The notes below the pieces were generated by a model. It did no database searches. It had not been told where the DNA came from and saw only the letters and a list, made by a program, of their open reading frames with translations. Shown here in pieces: positions 3,001 through 64,000 of a DNA stretch of 64,000 nt (positions are counted from its first letter, which is position 1; every line of letters begins with the position of its first letter). The position numbers and the translations under genes are program-made. The stretch comes from Leucoraja erinacea (taxonomy: Eukaryota). The stretch is from positions 16,182,001 through 16,246,000 of the forward strand of contig NC_073393.1 of assembly GCF_028641065.1 (NCBI RefSeq), given 5' to 3'.

Positions 3001-3657
3001 TTATGTCTCAGCTATTTGATGAGAGAATGGTAGCTGCCTACTTTAACAATGTATTAATTTCACAAAATGAACACATTATATTTAAGTGCAAGACAGGCAT
3101 AATTGGAATTCAGGCTACACAACCTATATTTGGGTTTAGGCCAGGGCATCTCATTCTGTGCCAACCTAGCTCACTACTTCATTCAGTTCAGGCTGATTTA
3201 CTCGGGTATGTACCTACACGTTTGTTGAACAAAACCATTAAGTGTGCGGGATAGCTTCTTCCTTTCCCATTTCCAGCAAATGTACCAGGTCGTCTCAGTT
3301 TCATTAATGTAGGCGTAAAATATAAGTAGGCAAGTTCAGAGTTAATTTGGATTCATCATGATTGGGTCCGTTTTTAATTTTATAGCCACATAGATCTTTA
3401 CAGTGCAGAACCGAACACATTTACCCAATAAGTCCCCATTATAACATTTTTGTACAAGATGGTGTCAGATTGTTATACCAAAATGTTCTATAGACCAGAC
3501 ATGCCAGCGAATAATCCCTTTTAATAATGGAGGAGTGAAATATTACAAAAGGGAATATTCTAACATTTTCCAATGTACACCAGACAAGTATATCGGTTCA
3601 CATCTTGTTTGCAATATTGAAATCAGAACATATGTTATCTTTTAACATTTTCTACAG

Positions 3658-3948
3658 CTTCCCCAGCACCAATGACGATTATGAAATCACAAGATGCAGA
3701 TGGTTCTCTGCTGTGCAAAACCTCTGGGTTCTTTCCTGCAGACTACAGCTTGTCTTGGTATAGAGATGGTCAAATAATTACGAATGGAGTAAAAACAAAC
3801 GATCAGCTTAACGCAGAGCATCTAACTGAAGCCTCCAGCTACTTGCACGACACAGAGCCAGCGCAGGAAGGAACTATCTACACATGTGAAGTATCTCACT
3901 CCACGCTCAAAGCTCCAGCTTCGGCCACTTATACTGTCAACCTTGCAG
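3658..3948 (+). CDS. Gene A: Ig C1-set domain exon of an IgSF receptor (leader and V exons presumably upstream of the window)
   Basis: Acceptor tttctacag|, donor G|gtagaa, phase 1/1. Translation ASPAPMTIMKSQDADGSLLCKTSGFFPADYSLSWYRDG...YTCEVSHSTLKAPASATYTVNLA has the C1 hallmarks LxC, FxP, W and YxCxVxH. Confidence 0.9.
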
Positions 3949-4827
3949 GTAGAAACATCCCTCTTTTGACAAATAATTTAATTTGTATATGATTACACTG
4001 TGTCTGGTTGATTTTTTTTGTTGTAATAATACCTAGCAGGCGATGAGTTAAAATCTGAATTTTCAGAAACTGGGTTTGCATGGAGTGTCTAAGATTAATA
4101 AGAGTACACACCAGCTGCAGCAGCTAAGCTTAGTGACGTGACTTTACACTACTTCTTAAGGTCCACTTTTATTCAATATTTCCCTGGATGTAATTCTTTG
4201 CTGATGTGTTTTTGCACAATTGTTTTAACTGATGAGATATCTTAAGTTAAAAACAGAAAGTACTGGAAAAACTCTGCAGCTCCTCCAACATTTATGGAAA
4301 GATACATAGAGTTAAGAATGATCTCCAACCTGAAAGGTTAATTCTCTTTCTCTTTCCATAGATGCTGCCTGTTCTCCAGTGTGCTACTAGCATTTTCTGT
4401 ATTTTTACTTCAGATTTCCAGCATCCATGGATTTATGATTATTTTCATGCCTCGGTTACTTACTCATTCTATACATGGGATCAATATGCCACAGAATTAT
4501 AGAATGATTACATCACACAAGGAGCCCTTTTAGCCCATCATGTGTGTGCTGATTTTCTACCAGAACAAATCACTAGTCTCCCCACACCAGCACATTCTCT
4601 CCGGCATTGCATTTTTTTCTGCAGCATATATTAATACAATTCATCTCTTTGATGATATAGCAGAACCTGCTTCCATTACATCCATAGGTAATGCATTCAC
4701 TTCCCCCATTATTAATGACAACCCTTTGGTCTTTGTGTTTCACTATCTCGATACATTTTCTAGCCTTCATCGATTTATATATATATCCATCAAATCTCCC
4801 CTCGGCCTTCTCTTCTCCAAAGAAAGG

Positions 4828-8684: not shown

Positions 8685-8789
8685 ATGTCAGTTCAAAAAC
8701 TACTTTACCTTGGTGGATTCCTCTTTGTGCAGTACTGTCTCTACTGCTTCTGATTATTGTAGCAATAGTCAGTTATAAACTCTGCAAAG
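8685..8789 (+). CDS. Gene A: transmembrane exon (uncharged TM)
   Basis: ctttccag| and G|gtaagg, phase 1/1, 105 nt, the same length as the gene B TM exon. Encodes DVSSKTTLPWWIPLCAVLSLLLLIIVAIVSYKLCK. Confidence 0.85.
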
Positions 8790-13420: not shown

Positions 13421-13842
13421 AGTATTTCATGTATTTCTTCCAGATTCCCATTCCCATCAGTCATATAGCGTGCAATTCAGGGCCTTTTCACGAGGAGGAA
13501 ATTCTGACCTTGCCAATGACGTATATGATCACCCACAGTCTGTGACAGTAGCCAGACTTTTAAGGAGATGGTTCCTGATCCCACTATACTAAATTTTATC
13601 ACACCTACCGCCTTGTAAACAACAAGTACAAGACAGGGAATTTTATTCGATCATCCCACTCTTTAGTCTTTGGACACAAGGACAATTTTAGTAATCCTAA
13701 CTTCATCTTGATGCTATGACTGAGATTTGCTGGGTCAACATTGCTTAGTATTAGTAGAAGCGCGTCAGATTGTGAAGGTAAAGTTTCTTTGGGAATATTT
13801 ATGCATTTTCTAATTTTCTGTTTCATGTTATTTTACTTTCAG

Positions 13843-14045
13843 CACGTAAAGGCAAGGTTCAAATGAAGACCTGCGTACGTTGCATGCAACCTATCATGGC
13901 AAATCCTAAAAATCTGAAAGAGGAAACAGTTAAAGGGAATACACAGATGACACAGTGGAACCCAATCACAACAGCAGACGTTACCGATGCCAAGCCAAAA
14001 GTAAAAAAACATCGTAAAAGGAAAAATATCCCAATGAATATCTGA
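13843..14045 (+). CDS. Gene A: probable terminal cytoplasmic exon (no Tyr; CxxC; basic C-terminus)
   Basis: Strong acceptor ttttactttcag|, phase 1 compatible with the TM exon, continuing into ORF 13863-14045. Encodes ARKGKVQMKTCVRCMQPIMANPKNLKEETVKGNTQMTQWNPITTADVTDAKPKVKKHRKRKNIPMNI*. Confidence 0.55.
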
Positions 14046-29486: not shown

Positions 29487-29947
29487 NNNNNNNNNNNNNN
29501 NNNNNNNNNNNNNNNNNNNNNNNNNNNNNNNNNNNNNNNNNNNNNNNNNNNNNNNNNNNNNNNNNNNNNNNNNNNNNNNNNNNNNNNNNNNNNNNNNNNN
29601 NNNNNNNNNNNNNNNNNNNNNNNNNNNNNNNNNNNNNNNNNNNNNNNNNNNNNNNNNNNNNNNNNNNNNNNNNNNNNNNNNNNNNNNNNNNNNNNNNNNN
29701 NNNNNNNNNNNNNNNNNNNNNNNNNNNNNNNNNNNNNNNNNNNNNNNNNNNNNNNNNNNNNNNNNNNNNNNNNNNNNNNNNNNNNNNNNNNNNNNNNNNN
29801 NNNNNNNNNNNNNNNNNNNNNNNNNNNNNNNNNNNNNNNNNNNNNNNNNNNNNNNNNNNNNNNNNNNNNNNNNNNNNNNNNNNNNNNNNNNNNNNNNNNN
29901 NNNNNNNNNNNNNNNNNNNNNNNNNNNNNNNNNNNNNNNNNNNNNNN
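29487..29947. other. Assembly gap (461 N)
   Basis: Run of N. Confidence 1.
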
Positions 29948-57719: not shown

Positions 57720-58110
57720 ATAAGATTGAAACATATAAGATTGTTAAGGGTTTGGACACACTGGAGGCAGGAAACATGTTCCCGATGTTGGGGGAGTCCA
57801 GAACCAGGGAGCACAGTTTAAGAATAAGTAGTAAGCCATTTAGAACGGAGACGAGGAAACACTTTTTCACACAGAGAGTTGTGAGTGTGGAATTATCTGC
57901 CTCAGAGAGCGGTGGAGGCAGGTTCTCTGGATGCTTTCAAGGGAGAGCTAGATAGGACTCTTAAAGATAGCGGAGTCAGGGGATATGGGGAGAAGGCAGG
58001 AACGGGGTACTGATTGGGGATGATCAGCCATGATTACATTGAATGGCGGTGCTGGCTCGAAGGGCCGAATGGCCTAATCTTACACCGATTGTCTATTGTC
58101 TTTTGTCTAT
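57720..58110 (+). mobile_element. CR1 3' fragment inserted in the gene C proximal promoter
   Basis: CR1 3' end (GESRTREHSL...FFTQRVV) with a (ctattgt)n tail. The empty site catcgcaacacatttc is present at the gene B paralog. Confidence 0.85.
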
Positions 58111-58195
58111 AACACATTTCAAAGTAACCATTGCTTAGAGTGAATATCGTAGTGAGGCATCAGATGAATGATTTGCTCGGAATGTTAAAACTGCA

Positions 58196-58241
58196 ATGTT
58201 TCTGGTCCTGATTCTGTCTCTCTCCGTGATTATTTTCACAG
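58196..58241 (+). CDS. Gene C (putative activating VJ-C1 receptor): signal-peptide exon
   Basis: MFLVLILSLSVIIFT, donor G|gtacat, 46 nt. Confidence 0.85.
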
Positions 58242-58424
58242 GTACATGAACGATCTCGTATAGACTTATCTAAATGCCAAAATATTCCAAACTATTCCTG
58301 GCTTAACTGATGAAATGTATTTTTCAATTTGTCTGTTAGTTTTGTTTTTCATGCCAATGTACTATCAAAAGAGTTGGTTCTACATTGAATATAATTAACC
58401 AAATCTTAAACGTTTTTCCAACAG

Positions 58425-58745
58425 CTGCTGAAAAAACTGCGATCCACGTTACCCAAATTCCAGAACGAAAGGTTATATTGAAGGGAGCAAACGTCACCTT
58501 TCACTGCATAATCCCACTTGCGGATAACAGTTCGGGAATCGAAGTGCGTTGGCGAAAACAGGGCGAGAATGAATATATACAAAGCGACGCTGATGGCAGA
58601 AAGCGATTCACCGTCAAAAATAGATCAGGCGGATATTTTGATTTACTGAACACGACCTACGAGGATTCGGGAAACTATCGCTGTGTAGTCATGCGTCAGG
58701 GGGAAATTAGCGGAGAAGGAACAGGGTCAGAACTAACAGTATGTG
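58425..58745 (+). CDS. Gene C: V-set (VJ-type) exon
   Basis: ccaacag| and G|gtgagt, 321 nt. Differs from the gene B V exon at 3 amino acids. Confidence 0.92.
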
Positions 58746-59249
58746 GTGAGTGACGAAAGTGGACAGAATACTTGAGAATATTGCACAAGAATTATATCTC
58801 TATATTAGACTTCCGATTTGTGAGAGAGAAGGGCCCCATGAAATTATGTGAAAACCATACAATTTGATGCTCGTTTTATTGAATGTACAATATTATTATG
58901 CCGAAAATATATGTTAAAATAAAGCAAATAAGATGTATTTTAAAACAAGTGACAATAGCTTTTAATCAAGAGATCATCACACCTTCAAATACGATTCAGC
59001 ATCAATCACTATCAATTGCACCTCCAAAAGATTCCACATTTCATGTCATTGAACGCTGGTTGAGTTGAAACAAAATTAACTTTCCGCGGCGGTTCTTGCG
59101 CTCCGCTGTATGAGGTAACAGATATCAATAATTCGTTAACTTCTGTCTTCAAGGGATCGGGTAAAATATGTGGATTTCTAAACAAGCTTCTCCTACTGTC
59201 TGTTTAATTTAATTCTAGTAATATGATATGTTCGCACTCTGTCCCACAG

Positions 59250-59558
59250 CCCTTCCAACTCCACTGAAGATTAACTGGATATCCGAGAGCAATTCATCTG
59301 CAGCTGCAACGCTTGTCTGTAAAACGGCCGAGTTTCACCCGGGTGATCTAACCCTTCTATGGTATAAAAATAGCGTTGCTGTTACAGCTAAGGCTAATAC
59401 CATTAAACAGAAAAATAGTGAAGGGTTGTACACGGCTTCCAGTTCATTATCTATGACGCAGTCGGAGGCCAGCGGGAATATTTACATTTGTCTGGTGATA
59501 CATATCTCCCTCCAAAGACCCGCCATTGCCACGCACGCCCTTCGCAAACCCGGTCAAG
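59250..59558 (+). CDS. Gene C: Ig C1-set exon
   Basis: cccacag| and G|gtatga, 309 nt. Encodes ALPTPLKINW...LVCKTAEFHPGDLTLLWYKN...YICLVIHISLQRPAIATHALRKPGQ. Confidence 0.92.
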
Positions 59559-60092
59559 GTATGACTTGAAACACTGTATAATTTTATAACTTATTATTGA
59601 AGTCTGAGTGTGTTGATATTGACAACGTTTGTTTTAAAAGGATCACAAATGCCATTCATATCATCGTAAACACTGTCTACTCTAACGGGTCCCAGAACGA
59701 CTCGTTATTTCAGGTAAATGTCGAAATGTGAAGGGATGGCATTCATATTCGCTCGAAATATTTTGCATTGTTTGCTCGTTACTAAGCATTCCCCGGAAGC
59801 CTCATACTAAAGCAATTGTTTAGTGCATGTTACTGAATTTGCTAACAGATGTCTAGTTACCGCCCTAAATTGGTGTAACCCCTTCATTTTGGAGACGCTT
59901 TTTAAAAAAGTTCTAGAATTCAGCTAATTGTCAGAAAGTTTCCATTACAAGCCAGGGGGCAATGGCCTTGGACGCTACTTCTTTCTCTCAGTCTGAAGAA
60001 GGGTCACAGCCCGAAATGTCATGCATTCCTTCTATCCAGAGAAACTGTCTATCTTCAGTTTAAACCAGCATCTGCAGTTATTTCCTACACAG

Positions 60093-60353
60093 CTACTGCC
60101 TTTATTCCCTTTATCCCTTCACGTCTGTGAAACGTCCGAGTTTCACCCGAGCAAGTTAACTCTTGTATGGCATAAACATGGCACTGTAGTTACAACTGGG
60201 GCTAATAGCGTTAAACAGAAACATACTGAAGGGCTGTACGCAGTTTCTACTTCATTGTCCATGACACAGTCGGAGCCGAATGGAAAGGTTTACATTTATC
60301 TGGTGTCTCATACCTCCCTCCAAAGAGTCGCAAATTCAACGTCGTTTTCAAAG
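60093..60353 (+). pseudogene. Degenerate duplicate C1 exon in the C1-TM intron of gene C
   Basis: VCETSEFHPSKLTLVWHKHG...GLYAVSTSLSMTQSEPNGKVYIYLVSHTSLQR. The second Cys is replaced by Tyr, the 5' end is replaced by a Penelope-type fragment, and the retained gtatgac donor is now phase 0. Confidence 0.8.
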
Positions 60354-61311
60354 GTATGACTTAAAAACACTTTGACGTTTTGTAACCTACGATTCAATTC
60401 TGAGTTTGTGGATGATAAATCATGAAAATTGAGAAGCAAATAATACTATCCTCGTAAATAGCATTGACACAATTCTCCAGAAAATTCCCGCAAAATTTGT
60501 TATTTTCAAATTGTGGAAACGAATTAGAAGGGGCGGTTTTGACGTTTGCTCCACACACAACCACTTGCAGCTCTTTATTGGATTCCTGTTCCTATCATTG
60601 TGGATTCACCCCGATGTGTAATCCTGTGTATAAAAAATGACGTCCCTTCCAACCTGCTTGGATTTAAAGCAGGGAACTGTTTCATAACTTGTTTCTGGTC
60701 AAGCGCCGTATGGTGGGTTTCAACAATTACTATTGGTTATTTTGATCGGCATGGACGAGCTGGGCCAATGGCCGGTTTCCGTGCTGTTTCACTCAATATA
60801 ATAATTTCATGTGGGGGGCGATGGTGGGGAGCCATTTATTGCCAATCGCTAAACGTTTTTTGAGAGGACAGGGCGTCCTGGGACTTACTACATTGTATTT
60901 ACCATATGATAATGACCGCAGGTTAATATCCTTATGATCTGCAGGCGTGTCGGGAAAAAGTACTTGATACTGTACATAAGGGAAAGAAGATTTGCCTTGG
61001 ACCTCAACCAAATCAGCACTTCCCTAAGACGATGGAGCTTTGTGTGCTGCTGCATTCCAATTAAAAGTGAAGGAATATATCCACCCCATCCCCCTCATCC
61101 TCCATCCTACTTATTTGTCTGAAATTAAACTCGGTGGCAATTTATTCATTCCACTCTTCGGGACAACGTTGTTTCTAATATCCGATTTTAGCATAATGTT
61201 TTTGCATGTAATTATGAGCGAAAGCAAATCATCAAATTCTAAAGAGATTTTTTAAAACAAACAATGGTCGGCTCAAAGTAGAATTCAGTATCTGTCATTC
61301 TAAACTTGCAG

Positions 61312-61407
61312 AAACAGCCATCTGGAGTTCTGTCCGTCCGGCGGTTGTAATCGCATTTTTGTTCATTATGACTGTCATTGTCGGATTCTGCAAACTGAAG
61401 AATAACT
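61312..61407 (+). CDS. Gene C: transmembrane exon with Arg at the outer end of the TM
   Basis: aacttgcag| and T|gtaagtattatg (same donor context as the gene B TM exon), phase 1/1, 96 nt. Encodes ETAIWSSVRPAVVIAFLFIMTVIVGFCKLKNN. Confidence 0.8.
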
Positions 61408-61535
61408 GTAAGTATTATGCTTATAATTTACATTTCGTATTCACTGTCGACTCCACTGACAAGTAATTGAATTGTTTGGTCATTTTGCTGCTCCGTGGTT
61501 CCACGCTATTTAAAATGGTAACCTAGGTCATAAAG

Positions 61536-61966
61536 GTACTCGCTAGAATTTAGAAGATTGAGGGGGGATCTTATAGAAACTTACAAAATTCTTAAGGGGT
61601 TGGGCAGGCTAGATGCAGGAAGATTGTTCCCGATGTTGGGGAAGTCCAGAACAAGGGGTCACAGTTTAAGGATAAAGGGGAAATATTTTAGGACTGAGAT
61701 GAGAAAAAAACATTTTTTACACAGAGAGTGGTGAATCTCTGGAATTCTCTGCCACAGAGGGTAGTTGAGGCCAGTTCATTGGCTATATTTAAGAGGGAGT
61801 TAGATGTGGCCCTTGTGGCTATAGGGGTCAGGGGGTATGGAGAGAAGGCAGATGCAGGATACTGAGTTGGATGATTAGCCATGATCATCATATTGAATGG
61901 CGATGCAGGCTCGAGGGGCCGAATGGCCTACTCCTGCACCTATTTTCTATGTTTCTATGTTTCTAT
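61536..61966 (+). mobile_element. CR1 3' fragment just downstream of the gene C TM exon
   Basis: Near-identical to 51490-51910; (ttctatgt)n tail. Confidence 0.85.
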
Positions 61967-62551
61967 AAATATAATTTAAGGATGTATACGGAAGTCAAAT
62001 AAACACGTTTTGTGGTAATGTACAGTGAGAAATCTCGACTTTCAGGGATATATTATGATTGGACTCTAAATGACCGATCCATACAATTTCGAGAATTGCT
62101 GTGGATTCCCGTGCCCTGTGAAACGACCGCAAACAAAACTGAAGGCAGTTCTTGAATTCACGTTTCCAGCATAATTTGGGGAAGGCAAAAGCTAAAAACA
62201 ATCTCAGATAATGAAAGCCATTTCTATCCACCTAATACCACGCACAATCCCTTTCAACAAATCTTTACATAATCGCACAGGGTTATCGCCATTATCTTGA
62301 AATTCATCCCATGGCGAAGCTTATTCGAGAAGGTATGGTTTAGCAATATGACCCAGAATTTCCCAGTTACTCAATGCTATAATCCGCATTGCCCTGTATT
62401 TCAGTGTCAGACAAAACACGGCGTGTTAATGTATTATTTATGATGCCACAATCGGAATACCTCGGTTTATGATTATGGGGGTAGGAGTACATTCTGATAC
62501 GATACTTCGCTAATTTGATCCATGGTTTAAAAGTTTTTATTTACAACACAG

Positions 62552-62616
62552 GTTTCGACAAAATACAAGAGATTATGAAACGGCAGAGAATGAAGTGGCC
62601 GTTTAAAGTCCATTAG
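62552..62616 (+). CDS. Gene C: candidate short terminal cytoplasmic exon
   Basis: Acceptor tttatttacaacacag|. Phase-1 reading gives CFDKIQEIMKRQRMKWPFKVH* (no Tyr). No independent support. Confidence 0.28.
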
Positions 62617-64000
62617 AGACAGACGGTGTTTACCCGGTTAGGATTCAGTTGGATTCCAACCCACGGCATTTGCCTTTTTCAAATCTGTCCCTCAATAACT
62701 GGAAGTAAACGTAGACATTATACCCTAAAGTTGTAAGGGACCCTTACCTTTTGAAAAGTCAAGATGGAGAAAAACATAGATTTTCCATACATTAATATTA
62801 CCACGGAGCAGACGCTTTAGGGGAGAAGTATTTTGGTAACACAGATCCATGGGACTGAGAAAGATCAGTGCTTGTCTTCAATGTGAATTCCGCAGCTTCG
62901 TTGTTAATAGTCAGGATGGATTATATAAACCGGAAGAACAGTGCGGTGCTGCATGGTGGGATGGTTCACTCCCATGACTTAAATACCAGCGGATTATCAA
63001 TCTAGCTCGACGATCTATTGATTTTGTTTTAAGCGTTGTTTACACATTTGCATCGAAGAGTTTGCAAAATGCCAGAGAGATAGGAAATGCCAGAAAATTC
63101 ATCACTTTCATTCTGTCAATTAGCGATGCCAGCAAAATTCACGGAGCATCTATGTAGCCGTCTACATTTTGCCGAAATTCATTGCTTTGCCCGAATAAAA
63201 TGTAATTTCACATTATGTTTTATGTTCATTATAAAAAATATTAAACGATCAGAAATGGTAATAGAGTGAAGATTTTAACCATTGTGATTAATTAAATATC
63301 GTCCATTTCAAGGTAAATACAAAAGGATCGGTGGCCATGGAAAGTTGGTAAGTGTATATATTAATTTCGGGAAGAGGCCTAAGCGGAAATATACATTGTT
63401 GTGTATTGAACGATCTGTCGCATCTGTCGAGTAGTGTATTGAAAAATATTAAAATCAGTATATGTGGCGTGAAGAGAAAATAAAATTGGGAAGATCATTC
63501 GACAAAAAACGCAGATGACAATTGGGTACCTTCGTCGAACCGTTAAGTTTAGAATCTGTGAATAGCTTTAAGATGCTGACAAGGTCAACACCAGAAGGCT
63601 TAACTACTGCGAATATTCTCGGTAGACCCCATAATATTTCTATAGGGTTAATTGTATGAATTACAAGCTAAACCTAACGTGCAATTCCAGAAATTCCTTT
63701 ATTCATTTCTTATATAATACTAGTTCCGTTGTCCATACACTATTCATTAAGTTATATCAGGTAGGGCTAACCCACCAGCTCATCATTAACAATGCATGTA
63801 ACACAATGCAGAACCGTAAAGTGCTGATATCGATGCCATTTTAAATCCTTCTGCAAATGCAATTTGCTATTTGTACTGCACGTCACTCCCTCGCCTTTTC
63901 TCCGAATAACAACTAAACTGATGAAGCGACGCAGCCTAGAAAATCTGAATAGTGCTCTTCCCAGAGGTGCTGACTGGTCTGATGAATTTTCTATTTTTAT

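Follow-up and report, generated by a model that had tools for sequence, protein, structure and literature searches.

The window, by which we mean the whole 64,000-nucleotide stretch of the Leucoraja erinacea genome that was analysed (G000:C17:16182001-16246000), holds two genes with V-set and C1-set exons, B and C, which lie 17.8 kb apart in opposite orientation. Gene C is predicted to encode a V-C1 type I membrane protein with a single transmembrane (TM) exon, and gene B a relative with a long tyrosine-bearing tail. Their features are given below in window positions.

58196..58241, + strand: signal-peptide exon of gene C, also the start of the NCBI model P0001
58425..58745, + strand: V-set exon of gene C (Pfam V-set), with a J-like GxGT end
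59250..59558, + strand: C1-set exon of gene C (PF07654, E 3e-16)
60123..60353, + strand: decayed second C1 copy in gene C, its front replaced by a repeat and its second Cys lost
61312..61407, + strand: predicted TM exon of gene C, 96 nt, phase 1-1, from splice signals and frame
61335..61337, + strand: Arg codon CGT of this TM exon; the next residue is Pro, and 18 residues lead to the first cytoplasmic Lys
62552..62616, + strand: candidate short Tyr-free last exon of gene C (uncertain), with AATAAA at 63194
40351-40306, 40122-39802 and 39303-38995, - strand: signal, V and C1 exons of gene B, head-to-head with gene C
37545-37441, - strand: TM exon of gene B, with an uncharged helix, homologous to the gene C TM exon
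34895-34864, 34375-34277 and 33528-33372, - strand: tail exons of gene B, with four tyrosine motifs
58111..59650 (+ strand) against 40436-38903 (- strand): tract shared by B and C, 1.5 kb, 96% identical with introns included

The V exon of C terminates in GEGTGSELTV, a J-like motif contained within one exon. Over the signal, V and C1 exons the NCBI model of C (P0001, 228 aa; tapasin-related-like, Leucoraja erinacea) is identical to ours; it then runs into the intron after C1 and is without a TM segment. The decayed C1 copy was ruled out as a second C domain, given the loss of its front and second Cys and a nearest strong acceptor that is out of frame. None of the C exons was covered in six RNA runs of unknown tissue, of which 1-32% of each was read; four were checked on 58100-63300, where repeats alone were covered, and two on 60950-61530; these reads carry no weight on whether C is expressed. 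Interspersed repeats, abundant and transcribed, occupy 57725-58105, 59991-60091 and 61536-61970 of the window, further copies lie at 20.2-20.7, 27.4-27.8, 47.2-47.6 and 51.5-51.9 kb, and a run of N of 461 bases extends over 29487-29947.

A preliminary description of this locus had placed an arginine-containing helix at 61312..61407, and an exact, in-phase AG/GT exon is found there, with its Arg codon at 61335-61337. The exon is preceded by the acceptor ttgcag and followed by the donor gtaagt, and its entry phase fits the C1 exon (59250-59558), which ends in phase 1. The translation of 61314-61406 is TAIWSSVRPAVVIAFLFIMTVIVGFCKLKNN, in which the arginine is followed by Pro and 17 more uncharged residues up to the Lys. 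No other hydrophobic exon candidate was returned by a scan downstream of the C1 exon. The same description had put the arginine near the extracellular end of the helix. The outer position holds, but the best crude 19-residue hydrophobic windows begin at the arginine or 1-3 residues past it, so that the residue lies at the very outer edge of the helix and is not clearly buried.

The TM exons of C and B are homologous along their length and splice flanks (local score 68, against a maximum of 34 in 1000 shuffles) and share 59% identity, the C exon still being open, in phase and hydrophobic. Over its 96 bases the C exon is unchanged in DNA contigs from two further organisms, one of which carries 9 substitutions and 3 indels in the 485 bases flanking it; this suggests conservation of the exon relative to its flanks, in a sample too small to demonstrate selection. 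Eight close homologues were searched for an orthologue of the C helix itself, and none was found among them.

Downstream of the TM exon, the acceptor of the candidate last exon ranks 41st among 788 AGs. We also looked past the window for a long ITIM tail and found no family-type ITIM module on the strand of C up to the next gene. Single ITIM-like hexamers do occur in 22 acceptor-led frames downstream of C, largely in repeats and introns, and are probably due to chance.

As had been stated previously, gene B has no charged residue in its TM segment, the exon at 37545-37441 (- strand) encoding an uncharged helix. Its tail carries the tyrosine motifs LTYSAV, TSYAQV, LTYASV and TEYAAL, and a tail of this type is common to the ray orthologues P0002-P0004. 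Identity between B and C is 95-98% across the signal, V and C1 exons and their introns, and the shared tract stops about 90 bases past the C1 exon. Gene conversion is the likely origin of this tract, as it would account for an ectodomain homogenised recently in genes that were duplicated long ago. The same arrangement, opposite-facing and converted, is described for Xenopus CEACAM pairs in passages of PMC5112662. The four-Tyr tail and the near-identical ectodomain segment are both consistent with the proposal that B is a SIRP-like inhibitory partner of C.

Genes B and C belong to a family of 29 V(J)-C1-TM genes, which form two clusters of a single chromosome, C17, in searched stretches of 472 kb and 250 kb; numbered by position as g01-g29, B is g13 and C is g14. 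For all paralogues, TM and tail exons were predicted from DNA by splice signals and hydropathy and picked from candidate lists, and tail modules were sought with a profile built from homologues. An arginine stands 15-20 residues ahead of the cytoplasmic boundary in 10 of the 29 predicted TM exons, the offset being 15 in g21 and 18 in C. An intact family ITIM tail accompanies none of these ten genes, as against 13 of the 19 uncharged ones. Behind seven of the ten (g02, g06, g14, g16, g17, g18 and g21) no ITIM module was found, and the tails of g22, g25 and g27 are decayed. Three of four tyrosines are replaced in g22, with the frame open and the last motif kept; the first Tyr of g25 has become His, and its three further tyrosines lie behind an in-frame stop; and g27 has one Tyr changed to Ser and a second lost by deletion. 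Possession of both an arginine and an ITIM exon made g25 a potential counter-example, which was dismissed on account of the stop upstream of the remaining tyrosines. These decayed tails indicate a direction of change from inhibitory to Arg-bearing.

Seven starred clades of the ectodomain tree mix Arg and uncharged genes on short end branches, and the uncharged side carries the ITIM tail in all seven. Fisher's test of arginine against ITIM-tail loss gives p 4e-4, but it treats as independent paralogues that are not; the fair count is that of the seven lineages. Compared with the sister gene, the arginine codon corresponds to a change from GGA to AGA in g21, CTG to CGG in g22, GGT to CGA in g25 and ATG to AGG in g27 (the last aligned by eye). 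These codons point to at least four separate gains of arginine, and the arginine of C is likely a fifth, its exon being nearest to that of B. For the helices of g02/g06 and of g16-18, no match to another paralogue exceeds the shuffles, and by this comparison their predicted Arg helices are older. Judged against the family pattern, the arginine of C is no stray substitution. C17 carries seven predicted on/off sets, several of which likely arose separately.

Several members of the family depart from this scheme or extend it. Gene A (g12), with exons at 3657-3950, 8685-8789 and about 13842-14042 of the window (+ strand) and a V exon at G000:C17:16181139-16181441, combines an uncharged helix with a tail that lacks Tyr, contains a CxxC motif and is basic at its end, and belongs to a separate conserved lineage (P0059, P0061, P0106). 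The helix of g11 (G000:C17:16143606-16143505, - strand) bears a Gln close to the Arg register and a terminal Glu, and no ITIM module was found for this gene. A four-gene block is duplicated (g01-g04 and g05-g08; G000:C17:15.92-15.98 and 16.04-16.10 Mb), the on/off pair having been carried along, and g03 seems to be without the tail exons that g07 has. Two TM-like exons are present in g09. One extra family V exon lies at 13.62 Mb of C17, where a lone member of the family (G000:C17:13622985-13651000, + strand), 2.3 Mb off, combines an uncharged helix with a tail like that of P0069.

Shark and ray homologues repeat the pattern of arginine with a short tail. We examined 123 homologues and dropped 52 (26 over 520 residues and 26 without a helix). 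Arginine is present in 13 of those retained, two of which are the g27 and g17/g18 types of the skate genome under study; the tails of the 13 are at most about 56 residues long, and three hold one loose motif. Tyrosine motifs are found in 36 of the 58 uncharged homologues and are lacking from the remaining 22. No ITIM module was found behind 6 of the 19 uncharged skate genes either, and taken together these two sets mean either that short tails by themselves are frequent or that models are truncated. Arginine carriers include the sharks Scyliorhinus canicula, Chiloscyllium punctatum, C. plagiosum, Heterodontus francisci, Heptranchias perlo and Carcharodon carcharias, as well as the stingray Hemitrygon akajei and Mustelus asterias. 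In a quick tree of 50 rows (2 rows dropped), the 15 Arg rows require 15 changes, of which starred branches force 13. Six shark helices have R-x16-D/E-H in common; descent of the C helix from this old type was ruled out, its closest TM exon being that of B.

Two further proteins are related to these genes. P0131, from a 955-base contig, joins in one frame a C1 domain, an Arg helix and a short tail of g17/g18 type, parts that are separate exons in the skate genome, and a paralogous Arg exon is thus likely spliced to a Tyr-free tail. The helix and tail of P0131 are 100% identical to g17/g18 (16.28-16.33 Mb), and no C1 in the genome is more than 57% identical to that of P0131; this protein would be either a different ectodomain fitted with the g17/g18 activating module or a paralogue that the assembly lacks. 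P0129 has the uncharged helix of g19 (19.89-19.94 Mb) and a tail closer to the short tail of g21, and is possibly a recombinant or a truncated model.

Two loci of the genome exceed the cut-off for the adaptor profile PF11628. One, at 19.50 Mb of C24, has FcR-gamma as its best solved match (E 3.5e-11) and the other, at 4.21 Mb of C13, CD3-zeta (E 7.5e-12), and both predicted helices keep the Cys and the Asp. The FcR-gamma-like gene has an intact YxxL-x7-YxxI ITAM across two exons. Exons for a CD3-zeta-like ITAM were not found by pattern within 40 kb, and a search for the ITAM family gave no match. According to passages of PMC13107469, CD89 binds the gamma-gamma dimer by means of an arginine close to its helix's upper end and needs both Asp; a one-turn shift of the arginine is tolerated and a one-residue shift abolishes assembly. 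NKp30 and NKp46 are assumed there to bind the gamma-gamma Asp pair like CD89, and top-of-helix arginines are said to go with gamma/zeta, and DxxxT/S adaptors to pair with a basic residue at the helix centre. Xenopus XFL with a helix of this kind needs or profits from FcR-gamma on co-transfection, as described in parts of PMC2413239.

Some details count against coupling. The arginine of C is 18 residues from the inner boundary and the adaptor Asp 15, which by this simple count places it three residues further out, before a Pro and at the helix edge. Passages of PMC6557307 give NxxR and a C-terminal acidic residue as typical of LRC-type helices. These features are partly kept by the shark R-x16-D/E-H helices and are absent from C, which reads SSVR and ends GFCK. 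A complex prediction of the C helix with two FcR-gamma-like helices, run without alignments or controls, scored 0.12 against a mark of 0.34 and speaks neither for nor against coupling.

We consider that C is probably an activating member of a paired-receptor set that couples to an FcR-gamma/CD3-zeta-type adaptor. Such coupling had been put forward in the preliminary description, and it stands as a prediction: arginine tracks ITIM loss over the 29 paralogues and adaptor helices with Asp exist in the genome, a combination from which C likely signals via FcR-gamma/zeta. In a dimer of FcR-gamma or CD3-zeta, both Asp would be engaged by the outer-helix arginine of C, with signalling through the ITAM of the adaptor, and B would inhibit via its four tyrosine motifs, from an ectodomain encoded by a gene segment 95-98% identical to that of C. 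Within this scheme we infer the splicing of the C TM exon, the short C tail, the binding of the adaptor and a ligand shared by B and C. A B-type gene would have been duplicated long ago, followed by gain of the arginine and loss of the tail in C, and later by conversion that keeps the two ectodomains matched. Such matching would be expected were C to act as a counter-receptor against an agent exploiting B.

C could alternatively be a non-signalling decoy or a secreted form, either through a helix that stands in the membrane free of an adaptor, its arginine capping the head groups, or through a transcript end after C1. The Arg-Pro at the helix edge, the NCBI model without a TM segment and the uncertain tail exon would all suit such a product, and passages of PMC6557307 relate that receptors with these helices often reach the surface without FcR-gamma. 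We regard this as unlikely, however, since the arginine sits at a narrow register and is confined to genes losing the ITIM in 7/7 lineages, and since the C TM exon retains its frame and both splice sites.

Still less probable is that C is a decaying duplicate of B, a pseudogene in which the arginine is neutral. The family-wide pattern of arginine and ITIM loss is unlike neutral decay; the TM exon, although 41% diverged from that of B, is open, in phase and hydrophobic, and is identical in two other data sets; and the V and C1 exons are intact. Decay would account for the degraded C1 copy and the repeat insertions within C, and for a competing out-of-frame, repeat-derived acceptor at 60093 that scores 9.5 against 6.7 for the TM acceptor. 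Activation through DAP12, DAP10 or a CD3 delta/epsilon-type dimer is very improbable: NKG2D does use an arginine with DAP10, though in mid-helix (passages of PMC13107469), while the outer position in C goes with gamma/zeta, and the DAP10 profile PF07213 had no match over the cut-off in a search that is weak for such short exons.

The single helix of C is ordinary, because textbooks already cover both paired receptors and the Arg-to-adaptor rule. The value to a comparative immunologist lies in the whole set, in which Ig-light-chain-like (VJ-C1) receptors of the oldest jawed-vertebrate lineage form seven predicted matched on/off pairs, within a little-described family whose members are mis-named in databases as SIRP-, tapasin-, B7H6- or Ig-lambda-like, and in which intermediate stages of the conversion from inhibitory to activating are visible. 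We found no description of this receptor family in the literature covered, which excludes the subscription journals where much shark immunogenetics is published. A broader proposal, which we hold to be about evenly poised between right and wrong, is that cartilaginous fishes possess an undescribed, non-rearranging VJ-C1 paired-receptor family, sister to SIRP or convergent with it, on a different chromosomal block. Its activators would arise repeatedly (at least four or five times here) by changes of one or two bases that give a helix arginine, after which the ITIM tyrosines would be lost in a targeted way, with conversion matching the ectodomains; g25, g22, g27 and C would represent successive stages. 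The set of seven pairs would show that FcR-gamma/zeta coupling is easily gained de novo, would point to pathogen-driven pressure on the ligand of the family, and would offer a testable system for the activation of shark and skate myeloid or NK-like cells.

Among known systems, SIRP resembles the skate family in several respects. The family combines a V exon with a J-like end and a C1 domain, its inhibitory member B has a four-Tyr tail, its best non-antibody solved match is SIRP-alpha (2wng), and many of its homologues are named SIRP-alpha-like by NCBI. A family tail profile built without SIRP scores the tail of a bat SIRP-alpha at 23.9 bits, where shuffles reach at most 6.8. Against this, C has one intact C1 where SIRP has V-C1-C1 (as in P0128), V similarity is weak (E 0.014 in a pairwise test), and SIRP-alpha forms a long unplaced branch in the quick ectodomain tree. 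The activating skate members use an outer Arg and no Lys, whereas SIRP-beta uses a mid-helix Lys with DAP12. Linkage differs as well: the skate clusters lie near NDRG (15.75 Mb) and CNOT1 (18.91 Mb) on C17, a block that we take to be human 16q21, while the SEP-domain genes are on C21 and C4 and SIRP is linked to NSFL1C at human 20p13. NDRG paralogues are present on C17, C21 and C4. If C21 is the counterpart of human chr20, the skate cluster and the SIRP region could lie on ancient paralogous chromosomes. C is SIRP-like, which does not make it a SIRP.

The activation of C had also been called NKp30-like. This holds for the helix analogy alone; the architecture differs, since NKp30 has a single VJ domain directly ahead of its helix and C has a C1 exon between V and TM, which rules C out as NCR3/NKp30. 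As to linkage with the MHC, all 15 MHC class I matches are on other, high-numbered contigs and none is on C17. Shark NCR3 and PRARP are candidate counterparts of the skate family among known systems.

Other clients of Arg-helix adaptors (CD89, NKp46, LILRA/PIR-A, GPVI, OSCAR, NKp30 and TM1 of Xenopus XFL) share with C, on published descriptions, an outer arginine, a short tail and ITIM-bearing relatives; they differ in having unrelated ectodomains rather than V-C1, and C is without NxxR. In PMC6557307 the NxxR helix is described as a single exon type, old and conserved, whereas the skate arginine appears to have been gained several times from an inhibitory helix. Among VJ-C1 genes, UrIg, PRARP and tetrapod VJC1 likewise have a single-exon VJ domain followed by C1 (passages of PMC10751288), and UrIg2 is among the top solved matches of the skate family. 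The skate set differs from these in comprising 29 genes for membrane receptors, arranged in on/off pairs within the NDRG/CNOT1 block. Similar in arrangement are the converted pairs, Xenopus and human CEACAM and Siglec-5/14, which in published accounts show the same opposite orientation, near-identical ligand-binding exons and divergent signalling exons. The B/C tract differs from them in covering the signal, V and C1 exons with their introns, and activation would come from a helix arginine and not from an ITAM of its own. In its predicted mode of action C is like an FcR-gamma/zeta-coupled paired receptor.
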